Shown here: positions 14,804 to 31,395 of the stretch, piece after piece
Numbering within the stretch: position 1 is the stretch's first letter
Layout: every line of letters begins with the position of its first letter
Source: Minisyncoccota bacterium
GTDB taxonomy: Bacteria; Patescibacteriota; Minisyncoccia; Phycocordibacterales; CSBR16-193
Assembly (NCBI GenBank): GCA_040905715.1
Contig: JBBDRA010000003.1
Span: 263,142-327,141, forward strand
DNA length: 64,000 nucleotides
Reading direction: 5' to 3'
Made by a program: the position numbers and the translations under genes
The notes under the pieces: model-generated
Seen by the model: the letters and a program-made list of their open reading frames with translations, nothing else
The model's database searches: none
What the model was told of the DNA's origin: nothing

Positions 14804-14850
14804 CTATACCACGAGATTTTATTAACACAAGTTACCTAACATGTAACGTG

Positions 14851-14880
14851 TTGACCATATACCCCTAGGGGGTATATACT
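14851..14880 (+). promoter_or_regulatory. csoR promoter (TTGACC-N18-TATACT) with embedded perfect palindromic CsoR-type operator TATACCCC-tag-GGGGTATA (14858-14876)
   Basis: -35 TTGACC 14851-14856, -10 TATACT 14875-14880, ATG at 14887 (near-leaderless). 8-bp arms are perfect reverse complements, as in known GC-rich CsoR operators. Confidence 0.65.
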
Positions 14881-14886
14881 GGAAAC

Positions 14887-15156
14887 ATGAAACAAGATAT
14901 TAAAAAACAGCTTCTGAACCGACTTGCTCGGCTTGAGGGGCAGGTGCGCGGTCTGAAGAATATGGTTGAGAATGAAGAGTACTGTGTGGATATTATTACC
15001 CAGTCGCACGCGGTGCGGAGCTCTCTCGGCTCTTTTGAGTCGTTGATGTTGAAGAATCATTTAGAGACGCATGTTCTTGAACAAATAAAGACTGGTGAGG
15101 ACAAGAAGGCGTGCGAAGAGATCATAAAGATCTATAATCTGTCTAATAAAAAATAG
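14887..15156 (+). CDS. csoR: CsoR/RcnR-family metal-sensing transcriptional repressor
   Basis: LNRLARLEGQVRGLKNMVENEEYCVDIITQSHAV is near-identical in pattern to the CsoR signature helix. A palindromic operator overlaps its promoter. A P1B ATPase lies immediately downstream. Confidence 0.85.
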   Translation: MKQDIKKQLLNRLARLEGQVRGLKNMVENEEYCVDIITQSHAVRSSLGSFESLMLKNHLETHVLEQIKTGEDKKACEEIIKIYNLSNKK

Positions 15157-15157
15157 T

Positions 15158-17335
15158 ATGAGCCACGACTGCTGTCAGGGCAATAAACACAGTGAAGCAC
15201 CAAAGAAAGTCGCCGGTGATAGCGGGGAGATGGTTTACACCTGCCCGATGCATCCGGAGATCGAAAAAAGTGCGCCGGGAATGTGTCCGGAGTGCGGGAT
15301 GAGCTTGGTCGCAAAGACGAAAAAGGCAACGAAGCAAGTAACAAAAAAGTCCCTGGGCAAAGGAGTACACGGCAAGCATGCCGGTCACTCGACCAATGTT
15401 TTTTTGAAAAAGTTCTGGATCGCGCTTACGTTGACCGTCCCCCTGGTCCTCTACTCCGATCTCGTTGAGCTTTTTGTTGGACTTGAGATGCCGCGGTTTT
15501 TCGGTTATGAGTATGTGATACTTCTTTTGGGTACGGCGGTCTTCTTCTATGGGGGCTGGGTTTTTCTTGCCGGATCGTACCGCGAGATCCGTGGGCATAT
15601 GCCCGGGATGATGACCTTGATCGCATTGGCTATAGTGGCAGCGTACACCTGGAGTGTGTATGCAACCTTCACGGCGGATATGACGCTTTTCTGGGAGCTG
15701 GGAACTCTTATTACTATAATGCTTTTGGGGCATTGGCTGGAGATGCGCTCGGTTAAAAAAGCGCGCGGGGCATTGAAGGAGCTCTCGGCACTATTGCCTG
15801 ACACGGTGGAGGTAGAGCGTAATGGGAAGATCGAAACGATCTCTGTCGCTGAGCTTAAAAGTGGGGATGTAGTGCATTTGAAACCCGGCGGAAGAGTGCC
15901 GACTGACGGTGAAGTGGTAGAAGGTGTATCTGAGATAGACGAGTCGATCGCTACCGGCGAGTCAAAACCGGTTGCTAAAAAAGAAGGTGATGAGGTTATC
16001 GCCGGTACGATAAATGCCGATGGCTTTCTGAAGATCAAGGTAACCAATGTTGGAGAGGAGACGTTTCTGGCGAACGTCATGCGGCTGGTTGCCGAAGCTG
16101 AGTCTTCAAAGTCGCGTCTGCAGCTCCTCTCTGACAAAGCAGCGTTTGTACTGACACTCGTCGCTGTTTCTGTCGGTGCGATAACGTTCGTGGCCTGGCT
16201 TTCGCTCGGAGGTGAGGTCTCTTTTGCGGTCGCTCGCTTGGTTGCCGTGCTGGTCATTGCCTGTCCGCATGCTCTGGGATTGGCAGTACCGCTGGTTGCC
16301 TCTATCTCAACTGGAATGGCGGCCGAGAACGGCTTTGTGGTCAAGAGTCGTCTGGCGTTGGAGTCGGCTCGATCGGTGGATACGGTCCTGTTCGATAAGA
16401 CCGGCACGCTTACACACGGTGAGTTTTGGCTCGATGAGGTGTTTCCGGCGAACGGGTTCGATACTGCCGATGTTCTAAAGTTTGCCGGTTCAGTCAACAA
16501 AGGCTCGGAGCACGCTATTGCCAAAGCAGTGGTGGAAGGTGTGCGCGAGCAAGGTGTCGAGATTGTGGCCGTTACCGGTTTTGAGCGGGTGCCAGGTAAA
16601 GGGGCAAAGGGTACGGTTGATGGTGCAAAGGTGTTGATCGGAAGCGAGGCTCTTTTGGATGAGGCGGGGTTCGAGATACCTGAGGATATTACAAGCAGTA
16701 TTGATGAGGAGGCCAAGAAGGGGAAGACGGTTGTGCACGCTGTAGTTAATGGCAAATACGCTGGTGCGCTGTCTCTCTCGGACAAGGTGCGTACTGAGTC
16801 AAAGGAGGCAGTTGAAATGCTTCATAAGGAAGGTATTCGGGTGGCTATGGTTACCGGAGATTCAGAGGAGACGGCGGCGTGGGTTTCCAGCAAGCTTGGT
16901 ATAGATGAGTACTTTGCGCGGGTTCTGCCGGAGGAGAAGATAGAAAAGGTTCGCGCGCTCCAGGCGCGCGGAGAACGGGTGGCGATGGTCGGCGATGGGG
17001 TCAACGACGCGCCGGCGTTAGCGCAGGCAGATCTTGGTATTGCTATCGGTGCTGGAACCAATGTGGCCATTGAGTCGGCCGGTATTGTCTTGGTGAGGAA
17101 TGATCTGCGCGATATCGGCAAAATAATTCGCCTGTCGCGTCTAACCTGGAGAAAGATGATTCAGAACCTGTTCTGGGCGACCGGGTATAACATTGTGGCA
17201 CTACCATTGGCGGCGGGCGCTCTGGTTACCTTCGGAGTGCCGGCTATTGATCCGGCGGTTGGGGCGATCTTTATGTCAGCCAGTACGGTGATCGTTGCGT
17301 TCAACGCAGTGTTGATGAGACGGGTGAAATTATAA
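15158..17335 (+). CDS. copB: copper-translocating P1B-type ATPase, CopB-like (CPH motif) with N-terminal CPxCGM heavy-metal-binding domain
   Basis: N-terminus YTCPMHPEIEKSAPGMCPECGMSL (HMBD-type); TM CPH motif (VIACPHALG); DKTGTLT; GDGVNDAPAL; 8-TM P1B topology. Confidence 0.85.
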   Translation: MSHDCCQGNKHSEAPKKVAGDSGEMVYTCPMHPEIEKSAPGMCPECGMSLVAKTKKATKQVTKKSLGKGVHGKHAGHSTNVFLKKFWIALTLTVPLVLYSDLVELFVGLEMPRFFGYEYVILLLGTAVFFYGGWVFLAGSYREIRGHMPGMMTLIALAIVAAYTWSVYATFTADMTLFWELGTLITIMLLGHWLEMRSVKKARGALKELSALLPDTVEVERNGKIETISVAELKSGDVVHLKPGGRVPTDGEVVEGVSEIDESIATGESKPVAKKEGDEVIAGTINADGFLKIKVTNVGEETFLANVMRLVAEAESSKSRLQLLSDKAAFVLTLVAVSVGAITFVAWLSLGGEVSFAVARLVAVLVIACPHALGLAVPLVASISTGMAAENGFVVKSRLALESARSVDTVLFDKTGTLTHGEFWLDEVFPANGFDTADVLKFAGSVNKGSEHAIAKAVVEGVREQGVEIVAVTGFERVPGKGAKGTVDGAKVLIGSEALLDEAGFEIPEDITSSIDEEAKKGKTVVHAVVNGKYAGALSLSDKVRTESKEAVEMLHKEGIRVAMVTGDSEETAAWVSSKLGIDEYFARVLPEEKIEKVRALQARGERVAMVGDGVNDAPALAQADLGIAIGAGTNVAIESAGIVLVRNDLRDIGKIIRLSRLTWRKMIQNLFWATGYNIVALPLAAGALVTFGVPAIDPAVGAIFMSASTVIVAFNAVLMRRVKL

Positions 17336-17348
17336 TTAGATATAAAAT

Positions 17349-17789
17349 ATGCATAAATATAAAAAAAGTATTGGTGCGCTCGCAGGCATTCTAATGTTTG
17401 CTCCCCTGGGCGTTATGGCTCACGGAGGTCCGACGGTTCCTCACGACAGTTCAGCATCTGCGATAATGATGATGCATATGGAAGAAGAGGCTTTAGGTTC
17501 TGATCGGCACGAGGAGATGGAGGTGTTAATGGAAAAGCTTTTTGCCGGTGAGCTTAGTGAAGAAGAGTCAGTGCAACTTGAAAAGCTCTCTCGTGATCAC
17601 TCCGGAGCGTTCAGCATGATGGCAAACCGAATGCATCACCATGATGGACAGCAAGCAATGATCCCCGGAAGCTCGATGTTCTCGAGTGCTACCGGGTGGG
17701 CCGGAGTACTGATGGCTCTGGCGTGGCTGGTGTGGATCGGTGTTGGCGTAGCACTTCTGGCTTTGCTTCTTAAAAAAATAATCAAGTAA
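17349..17789 (+). CDS. Met/His-rich secreted protein with C-terminal TM anchor (putative periplasmic copper-binding protein)
   Basis: Signal peptide. MMMHMEEE and MMANRMHHHD Met/His motifs. C-terminal hydrophobic helix. Sits inside the cop cluster. Confidence 0.5.
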   Translation: MHKYKKSIGALAGILMFAPLGVMAHGGPTVPHDSSASAIMMMHMEEEALGSDRHEEMEVLMEKLFAGELSEEESVQLEKLSRDHSGAFSMMANRMHHHDGQQAMIPGSSMFSSATGWAGVLMALAWLVWIGVGVALLALLLKKIIK

Positions 17790-17792
17790 CAA

Positions 17793-18272
17793 ATGAAAAC
17801 ATCTGCCTCAATCATCGCGGTTGGTATTGGATTAGTAGTTGTGGCTTCCGTAGGCTATGCATTGCTTAGTACGCCTGTTGAAAGCTCCACGCTGCCCCGG
17901 GTCACGGTCCATAAAACTCCTCAGTGTGGTTGTTGCGAAGTATATATCTCGTATCTGAGACAGTACGGCATAGAGGTGGTGGTTAAGGATCACGAAGACC
18001 TCACTCCTCTTAAAAATTCTTTATCTATTCCATCTGAGATGTGGAGTTGCCACACCACCATGATCGGTGAATTTATTGCTGAAGGTCATCTGCCGATCGA
18101 AGCGCTTGAGAAAGGATATGAAGAGCGAAGTGAAATAGCCGGTATTGCCTTGCCGGGTATGCCAAGCGGGTCACCAGGTATGCCGGGACCGAAAGAAGAC
18201 TTCAAGATCAATTCTTTGAGTGAATCGAACGATGAAGGAGTCCGCAACTATCAGCTGTGGTTAACATTGTAA
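17793..18272 (+). CDS. DUF411 (CopG-like) metal-binding protein
   Basis: CGCCEVY, CHTTMIGEFIAEGHLP and GIALPGMPSGSPGMPG motifs match the DUF411 family found in copper-resistance loci. Confidence 0.7.
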   Translation: MKTSASIIAVGIGLVVVASVGYALLSTPVESSTLPRVTVHKTPQCGCCEVYISYLRQYGIEVVVKDHEDLTPLKNSLSIPSEMWSCHTTMIGEFIAEGHLPIEALEKGYEERSEIAGIALPGMPSGSPGMPGPKEDFKINSLSESNDEGVRNYQLWLTL

Positions 18273-18284
18273 CTGTACAAAGGT

Positions 18285-18812
18285 ATGAAGATAAAAAGAA
18301 AATATGTAGCAGGATCTGGCACTGTTGCGATTGCGTTGCTCGCTCCTCGGTTTGCGTTGGCTCACTGTCCGCTATGTACGGCAGGTGCCGGAGTGTTAGC
18401 GGTCGGTGCGTCGTATGTCGGGTTATCTACTGCCGTAGTAGGTGTGTTGATAGGCGCGTTCGCACTCGCGCTTGGGTACTGGTTGGCCGGGATGATCAAG
18501 AATCAGTACGTGTCGTATCAGTACGGGGTAATTGTCACGCTGACATTTCTTTTAACGGTCATCCCTATAATGCCGCTTATTCGGGAGTATCGCCCGGTGT
18601 ACCTCCCGTTCATTGGTGAGTACGGTACAACTTATACTCTGAATATATTTTTGGTTGGATCGATCCTAGGGGCGCTGATCGTGGCGAGCGCGCCGTACGT
18701 AAGTAAGGGTGTTACACAGATGCGAGAAGGAGCGAGGGCACCGTATCAAGGTGTTACGGTCACGATCGCTCTGCTTGTGCTCGTCTCGGTAGTAATCCAG
18801 TTCATTGTGTAG
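18285..18812 (+). CDS. hypothetical polytopic membrane protein with HCPLC motif
   Basis: Five or six predicted TM helices. N-terminal AHCPLCTAG cysteine pair. In the cop cluster. Confidence 0.45.
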   Translation: MKIKRKYVAGSGTVAIALLAPRFALAHCPLCTAGAGVLAVGASYVGLSTAVVGVLIGAFALALGYWLAGMIKNQYVSYQYGVIVTLTFLLTVIPIMPLIREYRPVYLPFIGEYGTTYTLNIFLVGSILGALIVASAPYVSKGVTQMREGARAPYQGVTVTIALLVLVSVVIQFIV

Positions 18813-18820
18813 CAGGCACT

Positions 18821-19264
18821 ATGTTTGAACTATTTATAAGTATTATCGCTTTGTTTCTCGGTGGCTTGGCGGCTAAGAGTCTTTTTCCGGGACTGTGTGC
18901 CTTGTGCTTTGCAACCGCCGGAACATGGCTTCTTGGTTTGAGCGTGTTCGTGTTTAGTCTCGAGGCATCGTTGGGGATACAAGAGATCGATCCGGTCATG
19001 TTGGCGGTGCTTATGGGCGGCAGCGCGGTGGGCTTGCTTTATTACCTTTCTGCACGACTGCCGGAGCAATACGGATTTTTCAAGCTCCCGTTCCTGCTGA
19101 CACTTTTCTGGTTGGTCTATCTCATGCTTGCACATGAGCATATGTTCGGCGCTGCTATCCTGGTTGCGGGTGTGTGGGCTGTGTTCATCGGTATGTTTTC
19201 ACTAAAGGATACCCATACTAGGCAATGGGTTACGAAGATCATTGCCTGTTGTCGGGATTGGTAG
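18821..19264 (+). CDS. hypothetical membrane protein
   Basis: 147 aa, 4-5 hydrophobic helices, directly downstream in the same strand run. Confidence 0.4.
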   Translation: MFELFISIIALFLGGLAAKSLFPGLCALCFATAGTWLLGLSVFVFSLEASLGIQEIDPVMLAVLMGGSAVGLLYYLSARLPEQYGFFKLPFLLTLFWLVYLMLAHEHMFGAAILVAGVWAVFIGMFSLKDTHTRQWVTKIIACCRDW

Positions 19265-19329: not shown

Positions 19330-19878
19330 ATGGCCTACGCAATATATAAAAATAATCCGTTCGCTGAGTTTTTATTTGCTAATACAAAGATGGCCGGCTT
19401 CTGGCTCGTGGTTCGCCTATATCTGGGCTGGCAGTGGACTGCTGCCGGGTGGGGGAAGGTGACCAGTGAGAGCTGGACCGGAGCGGAAGCCGGAAGCTCG
19501 GTCGCCGGTTTTGTAAGCGGCGCACTTGAAAAAACATCGGGGTCTCATCCCGACGTAGCCGGCTGGTATGCCTGGTTTCTTGAGAACGTTGTACTACCCA
19601 ATGCCGAGGTGTGGGGATACATGATCGCCTACGGTGAACTTCTGGTGGGCATTGCCCTGATCATCGGTCTTCTGACCGGTATTGCTGCATTCTTTGGACT
19701 GTTCATGAACCTCAATTTCATGCTTGCCGGTACGGTTAGCAGTAATCCGGTATTATTCACACTGGCGATCGGCCTGGTTTTGGCTTGGAAGGTGGCCGGG
19801 CATTGGGGTGTTGATCGATGGCTTTTACCTAAATTAGGCACGCCGTGGCAGCCGGGAGATGTATTTAAACGTTCATAA
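19330..19878 (+). CDS. DoxX-family membrane protein
   Basis: VRLYLGWQWTAAGWGKV and the downstream TM pattern resemble DoxX/DoxD small membrane proteins. Confidence 0.5.
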   Translation: MAYAIYKNNPFAEFLFANTKMAGFWLVVRLYLGWQWTAAGWGKVTSESWTGAEAGSSVAGFVSGALEKTSGSHPDVAGWYAWFLENVVLPNAEVWGYMIAYGELLVGIALIIGLLTGIAAFFGLFMNLNFMLAGTVSSNPVLFTLAIGLVLAWKVAGHWGVDRWLLPKLGTPWQPGDVFKRS

Positions 19879-20193: not shown

Positions 20194-22341
20194 GTGGGCA
20201 TAAAAATGGATCTATATAAGATATCTCAGAAGATTGCATGGGTTAGGACGGTAGCTATTATCAGTCTTCTAGCAATTTCTGGAACTCTTGTGCTTCCAGC
20301 TCACTCGATGCTAGCAGTAGACAACGCTTCAGAAAGTATTCACGTACAGTGGCCTACACAGGGCCGTTCTGATACGCTCGAGCATACATTTCTGGCGGAA
20401 GTTGAAGACATGAATACGGACAGCTACGAGCTGTACTGGTCTGTCGATGGCGGTGATCGTGTCGCTATGAGCGATCGGGATGGATTTGAACAGACTTGGA
20501 TCAATTTCAGTAGCTGGTACTGGAATGAGGACGGACCGTATGAACTACGTTTTATTGCCGTGGATGACGATGGCGATGAAATAGCTCGTACCGGACTGTC
20601 TCTCTATCGTGTTGAAGTTAATGGAAACAAAAGCAACATGGTGACCGATAGTGAGGTTAGTAGTACTAAACGAGAACCGATCGAGGTTGCTGATAGTGAT
20701 GAGGTTGTAGACAGGGAAGAGGAGGAAAGTGTAGACGATGAGAATAAGACAGAGAAAAGGGCCGAGTCAACGGACGATGAGGAAGTGAGTGAGGAAAGTG
20801 AGTTATCTGAAAATACAGATGTGAATGCTGGTGAGGATTCAGGTAGCGAATCTTCTGATGAGGAGTCAGAAGAGCTAACCAGTGAAGAGGCGAGTGCTAA
20901 CAGCGAAGAGAATAATGATGAAGAGAATGAATCACTCAGTGATCTAGAAGAGGAAAGCAATGACAACGAGTCCTCAAGTGACGACTCTGCTGACAAAAAA
21001 TCAGAAGAGTTAGATGAAGAGAGTGAAAATGATTCTGACATTTCTGAGTGGTTTACTATTACCGGTAACGTAGAAGATAGTGGTGTAGGTGATACTACCG
21101 AGGTTTCGTTTACTGTTGTGAACACCGGAGGCCCTGCAGAGGATACTATAGTTGACCTTGAGATCTTTAACGAAGAAGGCTCTCAGGTATACCAAGACTA
21201 TAAGATCGATCAGTCATTTGAAAATGATCAGGATCGAGACTATCAGTTCACATGGAAGCCTGATACCGCCGGCACATACAGTGCCTCAGTCGGTATCTTC
21301 AAGCCGTCATGGTCATCTATCTATAGCTGGCATGATGACATTGCCTCGTTCGAGATAGTTGATAACGGGTCATCGTCATCTGAAGAAAATGATGACGGTT
21401 CTGAATCAGTGGAGTCTAATGACTCAGATCCACAGGATCAGGACGACTTGTTGAACGGCGATAGTAGCGAAATCTCGATGAGCGAAAGTGACTTCTATAA
21501 TGAAGAAGGTCCTGCGGACCGACAGTACGATGAGTGGAAGGACGATCGACCGGAAGATGCTGAGTTGATCAAAAAAATCGTTGATCAGCCGATAGCCAAG
21601 TGGTTCGGTGGCTGGAACAACGATATTAAAAGCGACGTAGACGCGTATGTCTCAAAGGCACACAAGCAAGGAAAGACGCCGGTAATGGTGGCATACAATA
21701 TTCCTGATCGCGACTGTGGCTCGCACTCAGCCGGTGGATTAAGTAGCCTTTCTGAGTATGAGCAATGGATAAATGATTTTGCTGACGGTATTGATGGCCG
21801 TGATTCGATCGTTATCCTTGAGCCCGATGCTGCTGCGTTGACCAACTGTCTGGATGATAACGAACGTGAAGCACGCCTGATCGTTCTTGGTGAGGCGGCA
21901 GCAGTTCTTCGTGACCACGGAGCTAAGGCGTACATCGATGCAAGTCATGCAAACTGGCTTAGCGCTAATGATATGGCCGATCGACTGAAGAGTGCCGGTA
22001 TTGAAAAAGCAAGTGGGTTTGCATTGAATACCTCGAACTTTGTCTCTACCGAAAAGAATCTTCAGTACGGACGAGATATCTCAAAGCAGACAAACGGTGC
22101 GCATTTTGTCATTGACACGTCCCGAAACGGAAATGGTGCAGCGAGTGACAATGAGTGGTGTAATCCGGAAGGTCGCGCATTAGGTCAGAAACCGACCTTT
22201 GTCGACAACGACCCGCTCCTGGACGCATTTATTTGGACGAAGGTTCCGGGTGAGTCGGATGGTAAATGCAACGGAGGACCTGCTGCAGGTGTGTGGTGGC
22301 CAGAGTACGCACTCGGTCTTGCGGAGCGAGCTGATTGGTAA
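20194..22341 (+). CDS. secreted glycoside hydrolase family 6 (cellulase) with Ig-like N-domain and long acidic Ser/Glu/Asp-rich linker
   Basis: Signal peptide. C-terminal catalytic domain carries GH6 hallmarks: VAYNIPDRDCGS (PDRDC), VILEPDAAAL (EPDSL), YIDASHANWL (DAGHAGW), FIWTKVPGESDG. The middle ~250 aa are low-complexity acidic. Confidence 0.85.
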   Translation: MGIKMDLYKISQKIAWVRTVAIISLLAISGTLVLPAHSMLAVDNASESIHVQWPTQGRSDTLEHTFLAEVEDMNTDSYELYWSVDGGDRVAMSDRDGFEQTWINFSSWYWNEDGPYELRFIAVDDDGDEIARTGLSLYRVEVNGNKSNMVTDSEVSSTKREPIEVADSDEVVDREEEESVDDENKTEKRAESTDDEEVSEESELSENTDVNAGEDSGSESSDEESEELTSEEASANSEENNDEENESLSDLEEESNDNESSSDDSADKKSEELDEESENDSDISEWFTITGNVEDSGVGDTTEVSFTVVNTGGPAEDTIVDLEIFNEEGSQVYQDYKIDQSFENDQDRDYQFTWKPDTAGTYSASVGIFKPSWSSIYSWHDDIASFEIVDNGSSSSEENDDGSESVESNDSDPQDQDDLLNGDSSEISMSESDFYNEEGPADRQYDEWKDDRPEDAELIKKIVDQPIAKWFGGWNNDIKSDVDAYVSKAHKQGKTPVMVAYNIPDRDCGSHSAGGLSSLSEYEQWINDFADGIDGRDSIVILEPDAAALTNCLDDNEREARLIVLGEAAAVLRDHGAKAYIDASHANWLSANDMADRLKSAGIEKASGFALNTSNFVSTEKNLQYGRDISKQTNGAHFVIDTSRNGNGAASDNEWCNPEGRALGQKPTFVDNDPLLDAFIWTKVPGESDGKCNGGPAAGVWWPEYALGLAERADW

Positions 22342-22411: not shown

Positions 22412-22445
22412 AAAAAACACTTCACCGATCTGGTGAAGTGTTTTC
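22412..22445. terminator. bidirectional terminator between GH6 gene and the glycan operon
   Basis: AAAAAA-acacttcacc-gatct-ggtgaagtgt-TTTT, a 10-bp perfect stem. Confidence 0.75.
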
Positions 22446-22492: not shown

Positions 22493-24016
22493 CTAGTTTA
22501 CTACCTGTGCTTCAACTTGTGGCGAATCATCATACCAATCCGGTACCTCGTATACATATAGCTCAAGGCCGGGCGAATACTCTTTACGATATATCTCTGT
22601 AAAATTATTATCAAAGTATCTCTTTACTTCTTCTTGGTATCCCTGATCGTAACTGAGTAGAAGCCAAATGCGCTCATGCCACGGTGCTGATTGGCGCATA
22701 ACAAGATTCATATCTTCTTCTGAAAATGGCGGAAGCTCTTGTCCGCGGTACCTCTCCCACGGGGGAATCATGTAAACGCCGGCATGCCCTTTGTAGTAGT
22801 AGTCAAATGGATATACTGAGAATGAAGCAGACAGAACCACCATATCACGAGCTGTTACTTCTTTATTGATGTCTGCAACTGCTTCACGATAATTTTCTCG
22901 AACCGGGGTTTCAGGATGGTATGCCTGAATAGTGAGGGTTGAAATCATTAGAAAAACAAGGGCAATCTGGACAGTAGTTGAGAGAGGGCGGGCATAATTA
23001 ATAACAATCCAGGCAACGAACAGGAAGATCGGCATGACTGCGAGCACCATGTAACGGGAAAGAAAGATCGGAGTGATCAGGATGCTTACCAAAAACACAA
23101 TCGCAACCGGTAAGATAAAACCAACTAAGAGATAAGAGGTTACCGGTGATGTTGAGCGTTGATTGCGTAGTGCGAAGAATCCGGCCAGAGCAATAAGCGG
23201 CCAAAGTGAGACAATCATTGAGTTTATTGGGTCCGGTTGAAATCCAAAGAAAAAATGGGAAAAAACATTGAAGAGGTTCACCGGTGTCGGCGTAACGAGG
23301 AATGGTTGTGATCCAACACCACCATCTACACCCATAAATACATAAAGGAGCCAGGGAGAAAACGCAAGAACAACGACCAGTGCCGACGCCAGAAAAGACA
23401 AAAATGCTCCTGAATGAAATTGCTTCTGATTGAAGAAGAAATATACTGCTTGAACCAACAGAACAAACGAAAAGAAGTAGTGGGTGTATATGCCGATAAT
23501 AGCGATCAGTGTATAGCATGCCCAAACCCAGACCGGCTGCTTGCGCCACAGTCTCAGATAAAAATAATGACTCAGAGTGGTAAGGAGAGCAAAAAGTGTG
23601 TACATGCGGACCTCGTTACCAAACCAGTTCATGAAAGGGGAGATGGTGAAAAGAGTGGTTGCAAACAAACCAGTTGCCCGATTGTACGCGATCTCTCCCA
23701 GCTTATAGAGTGCCGGTATGGTTAGCAGGAAGAAGAGGAGGGACAAGATTCGTCCGTTAACTACCGTTGGCTCCAGTACGGATTGCCAGACATGTAGAGT
23801 TAGGTGATAGGCGGGAACATGTACATTGTCAGACAGTATTTTGATGATCTCTCGAGGACTTTGGCTCGTTTGCCATAAGCTTTGCGCTTCATCGAGACGT
23901 ATTCCTTCGTATAGAAAGAATATATGTGATACTGCTGCTGCAAACACCACAAGCGTGATAAGCGTAAGGAGTGTTGTTTTTTCTGAAATATGTGATGATC
24001 GGTCGGTCGGTAGCAT
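22493..24016 (-). CDS. GT-C fold membrane glycosyltransferase, ArnT/PMT-like (GT39/GT83, PMT_2 domain)
   Basis: 507 aa polytopic protein. First periplasmic loop has LDEAQSLW (DE motif), followed by a PMT_2-like TM pattern. Last gene of the 5-gene minus-strand operon. Confidence 0.7.
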   Translation of the reverse strand: MLPTDRSSHISEKTTLLTLITLVVFAAAVSHIFFLYEGIRLDEAQSLWQTSQSPREIIKILSDNVHVPAYHLTLHVWQSVLEPTVVNGRILSLLFFLLTIPALYKLGEIAYNRATGLFATTLFTISPFMNWFGNEVRMYTLFALLTTLSHYFYLRLWRKQPVWVWACYTLIAIIGIYTHYFFSFVLLVQAVYFFFNQKQFHSGAFLSFLASALVVVLAFSPWLLYVFMGVDGGVGSQPFLVTPTPVNLFNVFSHFFFGFQPDPINSMIVSLWPLIALAGFFALRNQRSTSPVTSYLLVGFILPVAIVFLVSILITPIFLSRYMVLAVMPIFLFVAWIVINYARPLSTTVQIALVFLMISTLTIQAYHPETPVRENYREAVADINKEVTARDMVVLSASFSVYPFDYYYKGHAGVYMIPPWERYRGQELPPFSEEDMNLVMRQSAPWHERIWLLLSYDQGYQEEVKRYFDNNFTEIYRKEYSPGLELYVYEVPDWYDDSPQVEAQVVN

Positions 24017-24028
24017 ATGATGAGATGA

Positions 24029-25678
24029 TTATGAGTTTGAGTGTGGTCCGCGGCCCCCCTGATCTGTTGATGCAAAAGAAGCAGATGGATTTGGAGCACC
24101 ATGTACTATTTGAATGCGCCGTCGTGGTCTATTGCTCCAGCGACGAAAAGGTTGCTTGAACCAGTTAATCGCGCTTCTCCTCTGGGCCGGTGCGGCAGCG
24201 TATATGAAGGGAATAAATACACTCACATAAATAGTTGTCCAAGCAATGTTGTTCATGATGGATGGCGAAAGACCTTCGCGACTTATTCCGACAACTATTG
24301 CAATAGCCGCCAATGTTATGTACAAGATCTGAGGAAGCGCTAGGTATAAGAAGTTTCCATTGAGTGCTTTTTTTGAGGTGACAGCGAATACACTTTTGTG
24401 TCGTAAGAGGGCTGAGGCTAAAGCTGAGAGATGTATGTTGAACATACTTATTGAGAAAGCAAGCGATCCAAAGGTAAATGAATAGTTGCTCGCGCGTTGG
24501 ATCGTGTAAAGCGTGGTTATGATGTAAGGTAGAAATATTAGTGCGAGGGTCATTGTGGCAACATCGAATGGAACTATTCCAAAAAAGAGGTAGATCAAAG
24601 GTATAAGCGCAAAGGCGATCACGATGATCCCGGATAAGAAGTAAGAGACCGAGGAGAGATACAGTATTCGCTGACGAAAGGTAAGACCGCGACAGAAAAC
24701 AAGATTGTATCGGAAAATAATATCAAGCGCTCCTCGCGCCCAGCGGTGTTGCTGTTTGTAATAGGAGAAAAAATCCTCCGGCGCAAGCCCTTCTGCTAGC
24801 ACTTTCGGCACGTAGATCGATTTCCAACCCTGTTGATGGAGGAACATACCGGTTGCAAGGTCTTCCGCGATACTTTCTTCGCACATTCCTCCGATCTTTT
24901 CGAGTGCGCTACGGCGGATCACCATGTTTGTGCCGCATAGCGTTGTTGCGTTGAGTCGGTCTTTTCCTCGCACGATCGGTCCGTAGAATAATTGTTGTTG
25001 CGCCCAGGCAACTCTGGTAATAAAGCTAAGTCCCGCGTTGTAATAGAATTGCGGTGTCTGAATATACGCTACATTTGGATCGGCACAGTACGGCATGGTT
25101 TGAGTTAAAAAATCGGTGTGTGGTTGGTAGTCGGCATCAAAAACAACAATGAAAGGGGCATGGGTGTGCCTAAGTCCGTTATTAATATTTCCAGCCTTGG
25201 CACCACCTGGCGTTTTTCTAGTAATGCAGGAAATGCCGCATTCGTAGGCAAGACGTTCGATGTCTTGCCAATTATCTTTACCTGCAACGTAGCCGTCATT
25301 TAAAATAGTGATCGAAAAATTCGGATAGACCATTGCCTTGGTCGCAAGAACAGTTCCGCGAACGGTTTCAATCGGTTCTCCGGCTACTGTGATAAATATG
25401 TCTACAGGCGGGGTAAAAGATGCATTTTTATAGTGATGCACTTTTTTCCCATACACTGTGTACAGGAAAGTTAGTGATTGCCATAAGAAATAAAGTTGCC
25501 CGATCACCAGGACCGTGAAAAGCCAACCACTTGAATATGGCAGCCAAAACGCAATAATGACAAAGTAACTGATCGCCAAGAGTGTATTAATGAGTACAAG
25601 CCAGTAGGGTACGTGTGAGTCACGCAGGAATTGCTTGTCGTCTGGTCGAAACGGTTGTGGGGTAGTGGCTGATGTCAT
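24029..25678 (-). CDS. processive family-2 glycosyltransferase, cellulose-synthase-like (BcsA/Csl/HAS superfamily)
   Basis: VDIFITVAGEP (D), KAGNIN, VVFDADYQP (DxD), AEDLATGM (TED-like), QQHRWARG (QxxRW). Two N-terminal and ~4 C-terminal TM helices. No convincing PilZ domain. Confidence 0.8.
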   Translation of the reverse strand: MTSATTPQPFRPDDKQFLRDSHVPYWLVLINTLLAISYFVIIAFWLPYSSGWLFTVLVIGQLYFLWQSLTFLYTVYGKKVHHYKNASFTPPVDIFITVAGEPIETVRGTVLATKAMVYPNFSITILNDGYVAGKDNWQDIERLAYECGISCITRKTPGGAKAGNINNGLRHTHAPFIVVFDADYQPHTDFLTQTMPYCADPNVAYIQTPQFYYNAGLSFITRVAWAQQQLFYGPIVRGKDRLNATTLCGTNMVIRRSALEKIGGMCEESIAEDLATGMFLHQQGWKSIYVPKVLAEGLAPEDFFSYYKQQHRWARGALDIIFRYNLVFCRGLTFRQRILYLSSVSYFLSGIIVIAFALIPLIYLFFGIVPFDVATMTLALIFLPYIITTLYTIQRASNYSFTFGSLAFSISMFNIHLSALASALLRHKSVFAVTSKKALNGNFLYLALPQILYITLAAIAIVVGISREGLSPSIMNNIAWTTIYVSVFIPFIYAAAPAQRRSAINWFKQPFRRWSNRPRRRIQIVHGAPNPSASFASTDQGGRGPHSNS

Positions 25679-26934
25679 GATGAAGAAGGGTACGATGTTA
25701 CGAGTGCTGTGTAATTTGGAAGTAGCTCATTGTAAAGACCGACACTAAACCACCGCCAATTTGTACCGTAGTAGCCAGGATCATCTTTCCAGGCATACCA
25801 TGTTGGGTTATAAAGATTTATCATCTTTTCTGTATATATTTCTTCGGCACTTTCTGGATCGGCGACCATAAAATAGCCCAGTGTTCCCGCGTACATTGAA
25901 GCGGATTCAAAGTTATCAATGATCGTGCCGTCATGACCATAGGAGGCCTGAAGCTTTTTTTCTGATCTCCATTGAGTTCCTAAAAAATCCATTTTTTCCA
26001 GAAGTTCTTTTGATCGCTCGTCCTGAAACCACTGCCAGTCAAGAGCAAGTCGCCACGGTGTTCGAAGAGCTTCAAAACCAAAGTTAGTAGTGAGATCAGG
26101 ATTATCAGATGCTATGATCTCGCCGGTGGTAGTATCTATCTCGATCCAATCAGGGGGAAGAACGGCGCTCGTCTCTGTATTGAGCGGTTGCTCCATTGAT
26201 CTCTCAATAATTTCGTAAGAATGTGAGGCCAGATCGTTCCAGCGGTGTTCCGGATCCTCATCTATCTGCGCAAATATTTTATAGGCGTAGGGAGCTAGGT
26301 ATGACGGGTTCACTATCACTGAGTTTTTCGGTAGCGTTTTTTCAACGTTGTTTGCTAAAAGATACGGGTCGCCATTGATCACGATCACTTCCTTGTTCCA
26401 GATATCAGTTATTACTTGGCGTGCCTCTATAAGGTACTGTTCGTCTTGCCATCTACCATAGGCGAGTGCGAGCGCAAGAGCAATATCCGTGTCGGCATCA
26501 CTAGCTGTATTGTGGCCACCATGCTCATCAAGAACACCGTAGGATCCGTCTTCTCGTTGTCCGAAAAGCCAGCTGAAGAGGTGGTCTTCGCCGTCTCGGC
26601 GTAAGTTATCTTTCGTCCAACGCCAGTTATTGTCAAAGGTTTCTTTATCATCCATCCAGACAGCTCTGAGCATGGTATAGCTTTGACCTTCTGATGTCGT
26701 AATATTTCCACGTTCGCGATCGAGGGTTCGATGAGTTCCTGCTTCTAAGTAGTCGTTCTTGTAGTTTTCCCAGAGACCGTTCATAACATCACGATTAGAG
26801 TAGATAATCGTGTTGTTGTATTGTAAAAAGTCCGTGAGGTTGAATATCGTATTTATGATCACAAAAATACCGATGAGAAACCCGAGCATCGTGATCGTAA
26901 CAGTGAGCTTTTTTTGTTTCGGGGTCATTCCCAT
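25675..26934 (-). CDS. glycoside hydrolase family 8 endoglucanase (BcsZ-like), N-terminal membrane anchor
   Basis: Catalytic TTSEGQSYTMLRAV. GH8 signature ASDADTDIALALALAYGRW. Stop overlaps the start of the downstream GT2 (ATGA). Start set at the ATG complement of 26932-26934. Confidence 0.85.
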   Translation of the reverse strand: MGMTPKQKKLTVTITMLGFLIGIFVIINTIFNLTDFLQYNNTIIYSNRDVMNGLWENYKNDYLEAGTHRTLDRERGNITTSEGQSYTMLRAVWMDDKETFDNNWRWTKDNLRRDGEDHLFSWLFGQREDGSYGVLDEHGGHNTASDADTDIALALALAYGRWQDEQYLIEARQVITDIWNKEVIVINGDPYLLANNVEKTLPKNSVIVNPSYLAPYAYKIFAQIDEDPEHRWNDLASHSYEIIERSMEQPLNTETSAVLPPDWIEIDTTTGEIIASDNPDLTTNFGFEALRTPWRLALDWQWFQDERSKELLEKMDFLGTQWRSEKKLQASYGHDGTIIDNFESASMYAGTLGYFMVADPESAEEIYTEKMINLYNPTWYAWKDDPGYYGTNWRWFSVGLYNELLPNYTALVTSYPSSS

Positions 26935-26944
26935 AGAAGTATGA

Positions 26945-27286
26945 TTAAACAGCTTGATCGTTGCCGGCGATGATACGCCTCTCTGATTCACGGGCGCGCT
27001 CAGCGGCTGCGTAGTAGATAACAAGGTTGCGAACGTAAATTAATAGAGCAAGGCCCTGTCCCGCGATAAACACAATATCAACGCGGTAGATAGCGTAAAC
27101 CAAGATCATAGCCGCTCCGGCGATCGACAGGTACCAAAATGAGAGCGGCACGACAGTTTCCCTGGCTCGTTCGCTGGCGATCCACTGAACAATGAACCGT
27201 AAAAAGAACACGAATTGAGCCCCAAATCCGAAGAGCACCCAGGGATTAGACAGTTCAGAGAGAATGTAGGTAATAATGTTTGACAT
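26945..27286 (-). CDS. LAB_N (lipid-A-biosynthesis N-terminal domain)-like small membrane protein, putative polyprenyl-P-sugar flippase partner of GtrB-like GT2
   Basis: FGAQFVFFLRFIVQWIASERARETVVPLSFWYLSIAGAAMILVYAIYRVDIVFIAGQGLALLIYVRNL matches the LAB_N consensus pattern. It sits 5 nt downstream of the GT2. Confidence 0.7.
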   Translation of the reverse strand: MSNIITYILSELSNPWVLFGFGAQFVFFLRFIVQWIASERARETVVPLSFWYLSIAGAAMILVYAIYRVDIVFIAGQGLALLIYVRNLVIYYAAAERARESERRIIAGNDQAV

Positions 27287-27291
27287 AAGAT

Positions 27292-28242
27292 CTATTGGTG
27301 GACAATGGTACGAATGTGGTAGTTCATCTGATTATTTGTTTTGAAAAAACTTCTAATATTTAGATCTATAAGTAGACCCATCATAAAGAACTGAGCTCCC
27401 ATAAGTATGAGAAAAATACCAAGGAGAGGCCAGATTCGATTAGCTATATCTACTCCAAAAATTATTCGTTCAATCGCCATCCACGCGATAAAAAGTCCCC
27501 CCAGAAAAATAGATAATAAACCAACCACACCGAAAAGATGTAATGGCCGCGCCCCAAACCTATTCCAGAATCCTATGGCAAGCATATCCACAAGACTTTT
27601 AAAACCGCGTCGTAAATTATCGTATTTACTTACACCGTGTATTCGTGGATAGTGATTAACAACAACTTCGGTGACAGCGAATCCTCGAGCTGAGAGTAGT
27701 GCTGGTATGAATCGGTGGGTTTCTCCGTACAGATCAAGATTGGAAAAACATTCACGTCGATATATTTGGAGCGCACATCCTGAGTCATGGATTGTGTCAT
27801 TGAAGATCACTTTACGTAAAGCGTTAGCTGTTCGTGATGTAATTCTTTTAGATAATGTGTCGTTACGTTTCTTGCGCCATCCCACTACCACATCGTAGCC
27901 CTCGTCTATTTTTACAAGAAGTTTTGAAATATCAGCCGGATCATTCTGAAGGTCGCCATCTAAGCTTATAATAAGGTCGCCACGTGAATTCTTGATACCC
28001 GCATCCATAGCAGCGGTTTTACCATAATTACCGCGAAATTGAATAAAGGTGAGCGGTTTTAAATGTTTACAAACTTCAGCGGTTCCATCGGTCGAACCGT
28101 CATCAATAAAGATCAACTCAAAATGTCGATCAAGTTTAGATAATGACTCTATAAGGCGATTGTAGAGATCAATTATGTTATCGCGTTCGTTGTATAACGG
28201 CACAACAACGGAGAGATCTATGTGCTGTATAAGTTGATTCAT
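27292..28242 (-). CDS. polyprenyl-phosphate glycosyltransferase, GT2 (GtrB/ArnC/DPM1-like) with C-terminal TM helices
   Basis: LSVVVPLYNERDNI, IFIDDGSTDGT, GNYGKTAAMDAGI and LDGDLQNDP motifs. Two C-terminal TM segments. Confidence 0.85.
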   Translation of the reverse strand: MNQLIQHIDLSVVVPLYNERDNIIDLYNRLIESLSKLDRHFELIFIDDGSTDGTAEVCKHLKPLTFIQFRGNYGKTAAMDAGIKNSRGDLIISLDGDLQNDPADISKLLVKIDEGYDVVVGWRKKRNDTLSKRITSRTANALRKVIFNDTIHDSGCALQIYRRECFSNLDLYGETHRFIPALLSARGFAVTEVVVNHYPRIHGVSKYDNLRRGFKSLVDMLAIGFWNRFGARPLHLFGVVGLLSIFLGGLFIAWMAIERIIFGVDIANRIWPLLGIFLILMGAQFFMMGLLIDLNIRSFFKTNNQMNYHIRTIVHQ

Positions 28243-28530
28243 GGTGAATAGAGTGTTAAAAATTTGCTTTTTCTGTCTGGTTTGGGAACCAGATTAGCAG
28301 AAGAAATGGCTGATAATACAATGTATGATAGATGCGCACTGTCACTACTAAAACACCGCATATAGGAATGCTCTACTGAACGAGATGTGCCTTTGGATGC
28401 GCGCTGTATCTATCAGTATAGACACCAGGAGTGAGACACTATTACAGGAACATCCGCATATGTCCTTAATGTGCTGACGAAAGGTTCGTATTTCTCATCC
28501 ACAGGCAGGGAGGTGACGGGGGCTTGAGGT

Positions 28531-29130
28531 TTGATAGTATTAAACGAAGTATGGCGTTATTATCTCACCCGACTTTTATATCTATCTATGAATAATCCAT
28601 TCGAATCGCCGGACGTTAACCTATCGAAGGGGCAACAGGAGAACTCTCAGTCCAATGAAGGCGCAGAAGAAGGTGCAGAGAGCCGAGAACAGGTCAAGGA
28701 AGAAGTAAGCTTGCGACTCGTGGGTGAGTATGATGAGCGCGCTAAAAATCAACAAACTGAGATGGAGCAAAACCCAACGCTTCGCTTGAGAGGTGCTGAG
28801 CAAGATGTTGAGGCGGTGTGCGACATGGTAGCGTGTCAGGCAGAGGTTGATCATGGGGTGATGAGGCAGATACTAGAAGAGCTACAGGCAGAGAATGATG
28901 CTAAGGATACAAATCAGATCGACTTTCTCTATGAAGTGGTGGCAGCGAAATTCGAAGAAACCCTACGCCGAAGGGAGGCCTTTGCTGAGATGCTCGCAGA
29001 CGTACAGCATCAGTTTCCTGCACTTGCCGACGAGCTTCGTAAGCGATTTTCAGACATTGACGCTATGTATACCAGAAGCGAGGAGGCGTTTGAGAAAAGT
29101 AACGTTACTACGAATAAGAAGGCAGCATAA
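28531..29130 (+). CDS. hypothetical acidic soluble protein
   Basis: No recognisable motifs. Stop overlaps the start of the GH15-like gene (TAATG). The true start may be the internal MNNPF. Confidence 0.4.
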   Translation: MIVLNEVWRYYLTRLLYLSMNNPFESPDVNLSKGQQENSQSNEGAEEGAESREQVKEEVSLRLVGEYDERAKNQQTEMEQNPTLRLRGAEQDVEAVCDMVACQAEVDHGVMRQILEELQAENDAKDTNQIDFLYEVVAAKFEETLRRREAFAEMLADVQHQFPALADELRKRFSDIDAMYTRSEEAFEKSNVTTNKKAA

Positions 29131-30194
29131 TGACTGACGCACGCACGGAAGCACAACCACATATTGAAAACTTGCATGCACTCAGGGCACCCTCGGGCCT
29201 CTTTTTGGCGTCCGCTCAAGATGTCTCTACCGGTTATGACAAGGCTTGGTTGCGGGATAATTTTTACATGTCACTGGCTTTTGAGCGGATAGGTGACTGG
29301 GAGACAGTTGAGCAAACTTGGCGAGGTATAGTAAGTATTTTTACCAAGCATAAGGATAAGCTCAGTTGGGCTACGAAAAACAAACCGTATGAAAGCTGGC
29401 AGTACATTCACGCACGATATAATCCCGAAACATTTGATGAGTATTGGGAGGAGTGGGGGAACAAGCAGAATGACGCAGTGGGCGCGATACTTTTCGCGCT
29501 GTGTACGTGTAATAAGGCCGGTGTTGATATTTTGAATACAAAGGAAGATCAGGAAGTGGTTCAGTTATTGGTGAATTATCTCAATACAATTGAATACTGG
29601 CATGATCCGGACAACGGTGTCTGGGAAGAGTACGAAGAAGTTCACGCATCCTCGATCGGTCCATGTGTGGCTGCGCTTAAGCTTCTGCGTGAATATGACT
29701 GGATCGAGATCCCCGAGGATCTGATTGAAAAAGGCGAGCAGGCACTTGCTAACCTTCTGCCCCGCGAATCGGAGAGCAAGTACTGCGATCTCGCGCTTCT
29801 TTCTCTTATATATCCTTATGATCTGTTGGATCATGAAATAGTCGATACTATTTTGAATAATTTAGAGTATCAGTTCGACCGAGACAGAGGCGTTATTCGC
29901 TACAAGAGTGACCACTATTACAATAAGAATAAAGATGGCCATGCTGAGGAAGCAGAATGGACTATGGGCTTTCCGTGGCTGTCCATCATTTACAGCAAGC
30001 GAGGAGATCTTGAAAAAGCAAAGCGGTATCTCGATAAAACTCGAGAGGTGATGACTGATGATAAGAAGTTACCGGAACTTTATTATTCGAACTCTTCCAC
30101 GCCCAATGAGAATATTCCGCTTGGTTGGTCGGAAAGCTTGTTCGTTGTTGCTCTTATAGAGTATGAGCAGGCTGCTGGTAAGACTGAAAAATAG
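29130..30194 (+). CDS. GH15-like (glucoamylase/glucodextranase-type) six-hairpin glycoside hydrolase
   Basis: GYDKAWLRDNFY (Y..WxRD), DNGVWEE (GLWEE catalytic motif), GVIRYKSDHYY (GRYxxDxY) and EAEWTMGFPWLS (GxPW). Confidence 0.6.
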   Translation: MTDARTEAQPHIENLHALRAPSGLFLASAQDVSTGYDKAWLRDNFYMSLAFERIGDWETVEQTWRGIVSIFTKHKDKLSWATKNKPYESWQYIHARYNPETFDEYWEEWGNKQNDAVGAILFALCTCNKAGVDILNTKEDQEVVQLLVNYLNTIEYWHDPDNGVWEEYEEVHASSIGPCVAALKLLREYDWIEIPEDLIEKGEQALANLLPRESESKYCDLALLSLIYPYDLLDHEIVDTILNNLEYQFDRDRGVIRYKSDHYYNKNKDGHAEEAEWTMGFPWLSIIYSKRGDLEKAKRYLDKTREVMTDDKKLPELYYSNSSTPNENIPLGWSESLFVVALIEYEQAAGKTEK

Positions 30195-30393: not shown

Positions 30394-31395
30394 ATGGAGA
30401 TAGGAATTGAAAATTTCATAGCTTTTTTTCGTCAAGCAGGACTAGCTGCTGCCGGAGCAGGTGCACTCTGGGGCTGTGTTTTCTTGTTCTGTGCCCGAAG
30501 GTCTGAGTCGGAAGCTTCTCAGGTCATTTTTCACTGGATCGCTCGGCGTCTCGAGCTGCTTATGTATGGAGGTATTATTGTTGCTACATCAAGCTGGCTC
30601 GCTCTCTCTTTTCTGTATGAAGCTTTTGCGCACGAGGGTATCACGCTGTACCCCTCGGTAGAGCAGACAGTAGCTGCGTTTCCGATTACTGCTCCGGGGT
30701 ACCTGCTGTTGGTTTTCTTGAGCTGTTTCGGGTTGATCGTACAGCTTATTTGGCCGCGAGTGTTTAACCATATCTCTTTTGGTTATTTTTTAGCTTTATT
30801 CGCCACGCTCCTTTTCTTGACCGGTCTATCGAGCGCTTGGACCGGTGATTTATCGAGCGAAAAGGGGTTCTTTGTGATTCATGGCGTTCATTCTATTTTT
30901 ACCCTTGGGACAGTGGTCGTGTTGGATTTTCTGATACTTACTTCCAAACCTCATCGTATTATTCAGCAGCATGTTTTTCCGCTTTTCCCATGGATAAGTG
31001 CGGTTATCTGGGTAGGGCTTGGGTTTGATTTTCTTAGTGTTGCACTCGTGTTCGACCAGGCGTTTATGGAAACGTCACGGTTCTTCTTCTCCCAAACAGT
31101 TATAGGTATTCTTATTATTAACGGTACGCTGTTATCAGGCCCGATCACGCGCAAGATCCTTGGATCACTTGAGCTCGGGTTTGAATCTATCGGGCGCCGT
31201 TGGATGACGGTAGCCGAGCTAGCAGGGGTGATCTCGATCACGTCTTGGACAGCAATTACTTTTGTTGATTTTTTCCCGGAGGTACCGTTCTCATATCCCC
31301 AGCTTATCGGGCTGTATGTCCTTGTTGTCGTAGTTCTTTTTTCCGGCCACTATCTCTGGGAGAGGCTACATTCGTGCGAATCTAGGGCGGTGTAA
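30394..31395 (+). CDS. hypothetical polytopic membrane protein
   Basis: 333 aa, about 9 hydrophobic helices, no catalytic motifs recognised. Confidence 0.45.
   Translation: MEIGIENFIAFFRQAGLAAAGAGALWGCVFLFCARRSESEASQVIFHWIARRLELLMYGGIIVATSSWLALSFLYEAFAHEGITLYPSVEQTVAAFPITAPGYLLLVFLSCFGLIVQLIWPRVFNHISFGYFLALFATLLFLTGLSSAWTGDLSSEKGFFVIHGVHSIFTLGTVVVLDFLILTSKPHRIIQQHVFPLFPWISAVIWVGLGFDFLSVALVFDQAFMETSRFFFSQTVIGILIINGTLLSGPITRKILGSLELGFESIGRRWMTVAELAGVISITSWTAITFVDFFPEVPFSYPQLIGLYVLVVVVLFSGHYLWERLHSCESRAV

Follow-up and report, generated by a model that had tools for sequence, protein, structure and literature searches.

Why would a bacterium place genes for lipid-linked sugar transfer and genes for a cellulose-type synthase in one operon? 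The question was raised by a 64,000-nucleotide stretch of DNA from a Minisyncoccota bacterium (contig JBBDRA010000003.1, positions 263,142 to 327,141), here called the window, whose host is a monoderm bacterium of the candidate phyla radiation (CPR), Candidatus Paceibacterota. Positions 22493-28242 of the window hold five head-to-tail open reading frames (ORFs) on the minus strand, with coordinates as first read from the ORF list, encoding a family 2 glycosyltransferase (GT2) of the ArnC/GtrB type (gene 1), a small LAB_N membrane protein (gene 2), a glycoside hydrolase of family 8 (GH8; gene 3), a BcsA-like processive GT2 (gene 4) and an ArnT/PMT-like GT-C glycosyltransferase (gene 5). An earlier reading of the bare sequence, the original prediction, had described them as a Gtr-type triad joined to a Bcs-type pair. 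Comparison with related loci gave a different division, as the conserved unit was GH8, synthase and GT-C, widespread in CPR bacteria and found also in a few cultured Actinobacteria, and the donor-supply genes (GT2 and flippase) varied between loci and were accessory to that core. The reading that we favor, with somewhat better than even confidence, is of one synthase-dependent glucan machine: as it emerges, the chain would be glycosylated by the GT-C, with a polyprenyl-phosphate sugar as donor, and trimmed by GH8 and a convergently encoded GH6.

One genome per species was scanned, yielding 80 loci, and core counts were made on 49 loci, the window among them, whose flanks reached 4.5 kb or more on each side. 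In all 49, the genes for GH8, synthase and GT-C were adjacent on the same strand, in that order in most loci and as GH8-GT-C-synthase in a few. The synthase-to-GT-C spacing in related loci had a median of -4 nt and was 30 nt or less in 55 of 61 cases. Homologues of gene 4 numbered more than 1500 at E <= 1e-20, and the 120 best were 51-78% identical to it; those among the 120 with a named source came from Parcubacteria lineages or Saccharibacteria. The CPR taxa with the core included Paceibacteria, Saccharimonadia, Gracili-, Doudna-, Levyi-, Dojka- and Blackburnbacteria, and WWE3. Outside CPR, at ca. 48-51% identity, the core was present in cultured Geodermatophilus and Klenkia (both Geodermatophilaceae), in Quadrisphaera, and in a strain labelled Streptomyces sp. 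NP160. The order in Geodermatophilus was GT2-GT4-GH8-synthase-GT-C with a convergent GH6. Actinobacteria are known hosts of Saccharibacteria, and their copies were compatible with an old gene transfer with CPR bacteria in either direction. The actinobacterial loci (L041, L047 and L050 from Geodermatophilus, L049 and L053 from Klenkia, L043 from Quadrisphaera, and L051) had a GT4 and another GH8 in addition to GH8-synthase-GT-C(-GH6).

The link between synthase and GT-C went as far as gene fusion. When a GT-C profile was searched against 1.84 billion cluster representatives (clusters at 50% identity), five clusters (P0365, P0382, P0384, P0477 and P0491) were found in which synthase and GT-C formed a single polypeptide of ca. 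1000 residues. P0365 was the top match overall, with 53% identity to the window synthase (residues 10-497) and 44% identity to the window GT-C (530-993), its halves joined by a short charged linker; P0477 was a distant fusion (34% identity) with a sequence that looked high-GC. Another protein, P0392, was a GT-C fused to a C-terminal GH6. From the published structures of BcsA and ArnT, the synthase C-terminus (a basic tail) and the GT-C N-terminus are expected inside and the GT-C C-terminal domain outside, and the fusions fit this topology. The suggestion that both halves of the operon belong to one system was thus borne out by invariable adjacency and by fusion of synthase and GT-C.

A gene-neighborhood search for the five-gene order itself found it complete in the metagenome contigs L093 and L112, at 36-64% amino acid identity per gene, and also in L033 and L042; L092 and L094 had part of it. 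Because the order recurs in other loci, and the three-gene core in 49 of 49, the arrangement in the window is not due to chance. The description as a Gtr triad plus a Bcs pair held in that all the genes were present, but not as a description of the conserved unit, as a GT2 of the lipid-sugar-synthase type lay within ca. 6 kb of the core in 27 of 49 loci. A GtrA domain was near the core in 16 of 49 and LAB_N in 3 of 49. The accessory GT2s of related loci had their best matches in ArnC, PgfS, AglJ, a Dol-P-hexose transferase and PpgS, and a GtrA_DPMS_TM domain, fused or separate, was found in 19 of 42 accessory proteins. Genes with a CTP_transf_like domain (TagD-type cytidylyltransferase-like) stood near the cassette in five loci (L015:6902-8476, L011:514-1074, L021:16636-17169, L023:5921-6574 and L059:10147-10704), in one of them fused to GT2-GtrA in a 525-residue protein, which hints that some lineages add a further group that is not a sugar, such as glycerol-phosphate.

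Judged by its sequence, gene 4 encodes a synthase and channel of the processive BcsA type, with none of the catalytic or gating motifs missing. Its translation contained DAD, AED, QQHRW and FAVTSK (the FxVTxK gating-loop motif), and the motifs NDG, GAKAGN, FDAD, QxPQ, CGTN, ED, QQxRW and FxxTxK were invariant in 20 orthologues. The family profile matched BcsA (4hg6/5ej1) at E ~5e-75, with query residues 14-501 aligned to BcsA 47-570, and the match to TIGR03030 (CelA) was 1.2e-80, at 271 bits against a 699-bit cut-off. The alignment to BcsA ended at residue 570, ahead of PilZ, and no PilZ domain was matched in gene 4 by Pfam; without PilZ, gene 4 would have no cyclic di-GMP switch. Its C-terminal tail was instead ca. 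50 residues of basic, low-complexity sequence. No family match to BcsB was found in the 19 window ORFs scanned (11.2-37.2 kb), nor among the conserved families of 83 related loci. In its working the operon is like a Bcs core, but two of the features that define Bcs systems, PilZ and BcsB, were not found in it; the original prediction had likewise called gene 4 BcsA-like without either. The product of gene 4 would probably be a beta-glucan with beta-1,4 linkage, as BcsA was the nearest solved relative and two cellulase families, GH8 and GH6, were its companions.

For the GT-C, sequence searches of the PDB with the single protein and with a profile found no match, and relatives were found by fold search. 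The AlphaFold2 model (pLDDT 83.9, pTM 0.85) had a GT-C_A fold in Foldseek, with ArnT (5f15) giving the best TM-score (0.60/0.57) and STT3/PglB matching at E ~1e-8; Pmt4 and Pmt1/2 were also among the fold matches, with TM-scores of ca. 0.5. The motif RLDEAQS (D42, E43), in the first outer loop after the first transmembrane (TM) helix, was invariant in 36 orthologues, as were ca. 60 other positions. Because of this invariance, and of the GT-C_A fold of the model, the GT-C is predicted to be catalytic, with its Asp-Glu loop intact. Several GT-C relatives (e.g., P0433 and P0471) had unexplained extensions of ca. 300 residues.

GH8 had a single N-terminal TM segment (residues 12-30), by which it is predicted to be held outside the membrane, and the motifs TSEGQS and ASDADTDIA were read in its translation. 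Its closest solved relatives were Clostridium thermocellum CelA (1cem, 1.6e-26) and Escherichia coli BcsZ (3qxf, 8e-20), and it matched the BcsZ family NF008305 at 4e-38, with 131 bits against the 299-bit equivalog cut-off. The catalytic Glu was kept in 70 of 73 orthologues. In the NCBI annotation GH8 starts 2 codons downstream, giving 417 residues. The GH6 protein resembled Mycobacterium tuberculosis Cel6 (1up0, 2.9e-63) and Thermobifida fusca E2 (1tml, 1e-53), and was built of a signal/anchor, two small beta-rich modules and the catalytic domain; it included a conserved N-terminal module and a beta-sandwich with a weak Wzt_C-like match in Pfam. A GH6 gene adjoined the core in 25 of 49 loci. 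The linkers between the modules and the catalytic domain of the window GH6 were unusually long and extremely acidic (Glu/Asp/Ser), and its N-terminal module recurred in the GH6 of L033 and L042.

At least 24 related loci encoded a protein of 130-250 residues just upstream of GH8 (e.g., L003:6184-6729, L028:8163-8729 and L075:8201-8839), with an N-terminal signal/TM segment, a long Pro/Thr/Ser-rich (P/T/S-rich) low-complexity stretch, a loose "Y..(L/I)S...T" patch and, at the C-terminus, a TM anchor. This protein may be a fourth component of the system, either a minimal BcsB-like anchor or a target of glycosylation.

Gene 1 is a predicted polyprenyl-phosphate sugar synthase, with a cytoplasmic GT-A domain followed by two C-terminal TM helices (hydrophobic segments at ca. 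239-257 and 274-292). Its full-length alignments to the solved structures of ArnC (9bhc, 1.5e-41, residues 10-314) and GtrB (5ekp, 1.6e-29) were those expected of the GtrB/ArnC-like enzyme originally proposed; it also matched DPMS (5mlz, 4e-17), and in NCBIfam it matched ArnC (3.6e-50, residues 9-315, under the equivalog cut-off) and PgfS (1.3e-36).

Gene 2 stands where a flippase would be expected. Its only Pfam domain was LAB_N, no GtrA or ArnE/F (EamA)-type flippase domain was found in it, and GtrA_DPMS_TM was not found in the window. LAB_N occupied the slot in this window and in L033, L042, L093 and L112, and GtrA occupied it in other related loci, which agreed with the position first assigned to it. 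Of the distinct metagenomic LAB_N loci, 45 had flanks long enough for the comparison, and in 21 of these a GT2 of ca. 310 residues was adjacent (17 directly upstream, 4 directly downstream). The LAB_N family profile matched SemiSWEETs weakly in the PDB (4qnc, E 0.0096; 4x5m, E 0.02), and SemiSWEETs were also the best Foldseek matches (prob 0.93) of its AlphaFold2 model (pLDDT 81). We regard LAB_N as a candidate flippase or chaperone for the polyprenyl-phosphate sugar, or as a candidate partner of gene 1. The MtN3-like clan of Pfam includes LAB_N, SWEET and PQ-loop families (PMC4499210), and MPDU1 is a PQ-loop protein required in mammals for all transfers that depend on Dol-P-monosaccharides (PMC3281891); by analogy with this role of MPDU1, LAB_N may have an equivalent one. 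An alternative of equal simplicity, also by analogy, would be that LAB_N activates the GT2. Such a case is GacJ, which activates GacI.

Other LAB_N genes adjoined PMT_2 or DUF2079 membrane proteins, and a GT-C was near LAB_N in L085/86, L089/90 and L091. On the Patescibacteria contig of L085/L086 (1624-4273), a DUF2079 membrane protein, a 308-residue ArnC-like GT2 and LAB_N formed a conserved operon with overlapping starts, indicating that the GtrB-LAB_N pair serves other membrane enzymes as well. In L033 (8406-9959) and L042 (5027-6580), LAB_N was fused in frame to the TM-anchored GH8 in a 517-residue protein. LAB_N and GH8 were separate genes in the window; a frameshift artefact at their junction was considered and found unlikely, because identical LAB_N and GH8 proteins were present on four independent contigs.

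The five genes have the layout of a single transcription unit. The spacing from gene 1 to gene 5 was 5, 10, -4 (an ATGA overlap) and 12 nt, the same close packing and single overlap that had been noted at the outset, and the families assigned to the genes at that stage (GT2, LAB_N, GH8, processive GT2 and PMT/GT-C) were all supported by Pfam, with GH6 in its convergent place beside them (Table 1). The gap upstream of gene 1 is common to the operon and the divergent ORF 28531-29130(+). A consensus promoter scan of 19-31.5 kb gave site counts no higher than in shuffles, and no promoter was assigned. The consensus terminator scan of the same region likewise gave counts like those of shuffles and missed a hairpin that was later found by reading the sequence. 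That hairpin folded at -19.5 kcal/mol (z = -5.8), was equalled by 0 of 200 shuffles, and, as a strong terminator-like structure present only past gene 5, is predicted to end the operon; with an A-tract beside it, it may act for the convergent GH6 gene too. An Rfam scan of the whole window gave no match. The five proteins were identical to NCBI entries MEX0672720-24, which come from a 523-kb contig of a Candidatus Paceibacterota metagenome-assembled genome and bear generic names only.

Table 1. Features of the operon and its borders (window positions; values are E-values of Pfam matches)
Feature	Position	Strand	Details
Gene 1, ArnC/GtrB-like GT2, predicted polyprenyl-phosphate sugar synthase	27292..28242	-	316 aa; PF00535 1.1e-31
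Gene 2, LAB_N, three-helix membrane protein	26945..27286	-	113 aa; PF07578 4.6e-28
Gene 3, GH8 endoglucanase, BcsZ/CelA-like	25675..26934	-	419 aa from ATG; PF01270 2e-40
Gene 4, BcsA-like processive GT2, beta-glucan synthase and channel by homology	24029..25678	-	549 aa; Glyco_trans_2_3 + Cellulose_synt
Gene 5, ArnT/PMT-like GT-C	22493..24016	-	507 aa; PMT_2 3e-8; extracytoplasmic C-terminal alpha/beta domain
Convergent GH6 endoglucanase	20194..22341	+	PF01341 2.6e-57; signal/anchor
Upstream non-coding region	28243..28530	-	288-nt gap 5' of gene 1; sole room for operon promoter
Intrinsic-terminator-like hairpin	22412..22444	-	9-bp GC-rich stem, 5-nt loop, U6; 3' of gene 5

In the machine that we propose, the synthase would build a beta-glucan, most probably beta-1,4-linked, from UDP-glucose and thread the chain through the membrane. 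Gene 1 would make the polyprenyl-phosphate sugar donor on the cytoplasmic face, and the SemiSWEET-like LAB_N would help to bring it to the outer face, in place of the GtrA domain of most relatives. The GT-C beside the exit would then transfer single sugars to the emerging chain, giving a branched or capped cellulose-like polymer. By cutting or releasing the chain, the membrane-anchored GH8 and the secreted GH6 would allow its passage through the wall or its fitting into the wall, a role modelled on that thought for BcsZ and CslZ.

With the Bcs core of Rhodobacter and E. coli (BcsA-BcsB-BcsZ), the operon shared a processive GT2 with DxD, ED, QxxRW, the FxVTxK gating loop and a TM channel, and a GH8 glucanase encoded directly beside the synthase; it differed in having no PilZ, BcsB or BcsC in the operon, in having a GT-C as constant partner, and in its monoderm host. 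The modified celluloses, with phosphoethanolamine (pEtN; BcsG) or acetyl groups (Wss, clostridial Ccs), would share only the logic of an envelope enzyme, tied to the synthase, that modifies the emerging chain; the modifier here would be a GT-C fed by a polyprenyl-phosphate sugar, and the added group would be a sugar. A review of Bcs systems covers the cellulose modifiers and does not mention a GT-C (PMC8892547).

The CslA-GlxA-CslZ(-LpmP) apical glucan system of Streptomyces was similar in its monoderm host and its BcsA-like synthase adjoining a GH6 glucanase. Like gene 4, CslA has no PilZ. CslZ is the GH6 of that system (PMC9040799), and, according to a preprint, CslA requires the membrane-anchored GlxA for cellulose synthesis (bioRxiv 10.1101/2023.11.20.567928). 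No GlxA copper oxidase or lytic polysaccharide monooxygenase accompanied the synthase in the window, which had GH8 and GT-C instead; a GlxA-type radical copper oxidase domain was found neither in the operon and its neighbors nor among the conserved neighbor families of related loci, and the cassette copies of Geodermatophilus, Klenkia and Quadrisphaera likewise had GH8 and GT-C, not GlxA.

The donor branch resembled GtrA/B/C, ArnC/ArnEF/ArnT, CsbB/GtcA/YfhO and GacI/J/K/L in its GT2 with two C-terminal TM helices, its small membrane protein and its GT-C. Those systems act on O-antigen, lipid A, teichoic acid or rhamnan, whereas the presumed acceptor here would be the glucan made by the synthase. 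Further differences were a small protein of the LAB_N family where theirs is GtrA, EamA or Wzx, and a GT-C coupled to a processive GT2 and in some cases fused with it. The eukaryotic set of DPM1/ALG5, MPDU1 and a GT-C (PMT/ALG) likewise combines a GT2 lipid-P-sugar synthase with a GT-C user, and LAB_N belongs to the PQ-loop/SWEET clan. MPDU1 has 7 TM helices, against 3 in the single unit of LAB_N, which presumably dimerizes, and the likeness between them lies in the shared Pfam clan.

Other explanations of the operon turn mainly on what the GT-C does. It could be a PMT-like protein O-glycosyltransferase acting on those proteins of the system that are secreted or anchored (GH8, the GH6 linkers, the P/T/S-rich protein of the relatives), leaving the glucan unmodified. 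Its Pfam family is PMT_2, its NCBI name is "family 39", PMTs were among its fold matches, and many relatives encode, just ahead of GH8, a protein with a signal, a P/T/S-rich stretch and a TM anchor at its C-terminus; such anchored proteins are O-mannosylated in Actinobacteria. However, the fold was no nearer to PMTs than to ArnT, the window had no P/T/S-rich protein, its GH6 linkers were acidic and not P/T-rich, and a general protein glycosylase would have no need of fusion to a glucan synthase, so that we rate this explanation as rather improbable. The GT-C could also be mainly a partner that the synthase cannot do without, structural or activating, in the place of BcsB or GlxA; or it could anchor or prime the chain on an acceptor in the lipid or the wall, instead of decorating it along its length. 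The failure to find BcsB in the operon or its annotated neighbors would be explained in this way, as would the invariant co-occurrence of GT-C and synthase, the existence of fusions and the many loci with no donor synthase nearby, and there is a precedent in the dependence of Streptomyces CslA on membrane-anchored GlxA, as given in the same preprint. A purely structural role, however, would not need an invariant Asp-Glu loop and many other invariant residues, and the enrichment of donor-supply genes beside the core also speaks against it; we consider it unlikely.

It is far harder to separate the two halves. Each is a complete known logic, and GtrB-LAB_N pairs were found away from any synthase, e.g., in L085 with DUF2079, as would be expected if a Gtr-type module that modifies a different glycan of the surface merely shared an operon with a separate glucan synthase and hydrolase. 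The adjacency of GT-C and synthase in 49 of 49 loci, the overlapping stop and start codons and the five independent fusion clusters strongly disfavor two such systems, making this very unlikely. A catabolic locus for plant or host cellulose, with GH8 and GH6 as digestive enzymes and a GT2 that is no polymer synthase, was the least credible explanation, scarcely worth entertaining: GH6 and GH8 are classic cellulase families, and the GH6 is like secreted endoglucanases, but the GT2 retains all the catalytic, channel and gating motifs of BcsA, GH8 carries a membrane anchor and is coupled in translation to the synthase, and no sugar-uptake genes were found in the operon.

Several observations weigh against a glycosylated glucan as the product. 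The ca. 45% of loci with no GT2 nearby indicated that the donor pathway is not obligatorily linked to the core. The base position of GH8 is Asp in 66 of 73 orthologues and Glu in the window. The P/T/S-rich, C-terminally anchored protein that many relatives have was looked for in the window, and none was found. All curated NCBIfam equivalog cut-offs were missed by the five proteins, so none of them is a curated member of a characterized family. BcsA-like enzymes also produce beta-1,3 and mixed-linkage glucans, and we infer the linkage type, the donor sugar and the acceptor from sequence comparison.

The literature searched (cellulose synthase with Patescibacteria, CPR, Saccharibacteria, Geodermatophilus or GT-C, with the older names TM7 and OD1 and subscription journals outside the search) held no description of the cassette, nor did a paper on Saccharibacteria genetics or the Bcs review. 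As far as this literature goes, and in line with the generic names at NCBI, a GT-C tied to a BcsA-like synthase is an undescribed combination of known component types, which is what the original prediction had supposed of the operon. CPR bacteria (Patescibacteria) account for a large part of the diversity of bacteria, with tiny genomes, almost no cultured members and envelopes that are little understood, and a cassette kept across many of their lineages likely builds something important for the surface or for attachment to a host. A bolder proposal, which we regard as less likely than not, is that the cassette makes an unrecognized glycosylated cellulose-like wall polymer, common across Patescibacteria and shared with a few Actinobacteria, and that LAB_N is a bacterial counterpart of MPDU1 that presents polyprenyl-phosphate monosaccharides to the GT-C on the far side of the membrane.

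If the glucan is indeed glycosylated, a synthase hard-wired to a GT-C would represent a new route to a decorated polysaccharide, and glycosyl would join pEtN and acetyl on the short list of natural cellulose modifications. The presence of the cassette in culturable Geodermatophilus, Klenkia and Quadrisphaera makes the proposal directly testable. The GtrB-LAB_N pairing could likewise offer a simple bacterial model for the membrane crossing of lipid-phosphate monosaccharides and for the role of MPDU1-type proteins.

The surroundings of the operon held further genes. A GH15-like gene (29130-30194) overlapped a 199-residue ORF with no family (28531-29130), and an 8-TM protein with no family was encoded at 30394-31395; all three were rejected as parts of the system, because nothing corresponding to them stood close to the cassette elsewhere. 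DUF1861 (13073-14071) was another carbohydrate-related gene near the operon and was not conserved beside the cassette in other genomes. Upstream of GH6, positions 14261-19264 formed a copper/heavy-metal cluster with a P-type ATPase bearing a heavy-metal-binding domain (15158-17335), DUF411 (17793-18272) and several small membrane proteins with no family, followed by DoxX (19330-19878).

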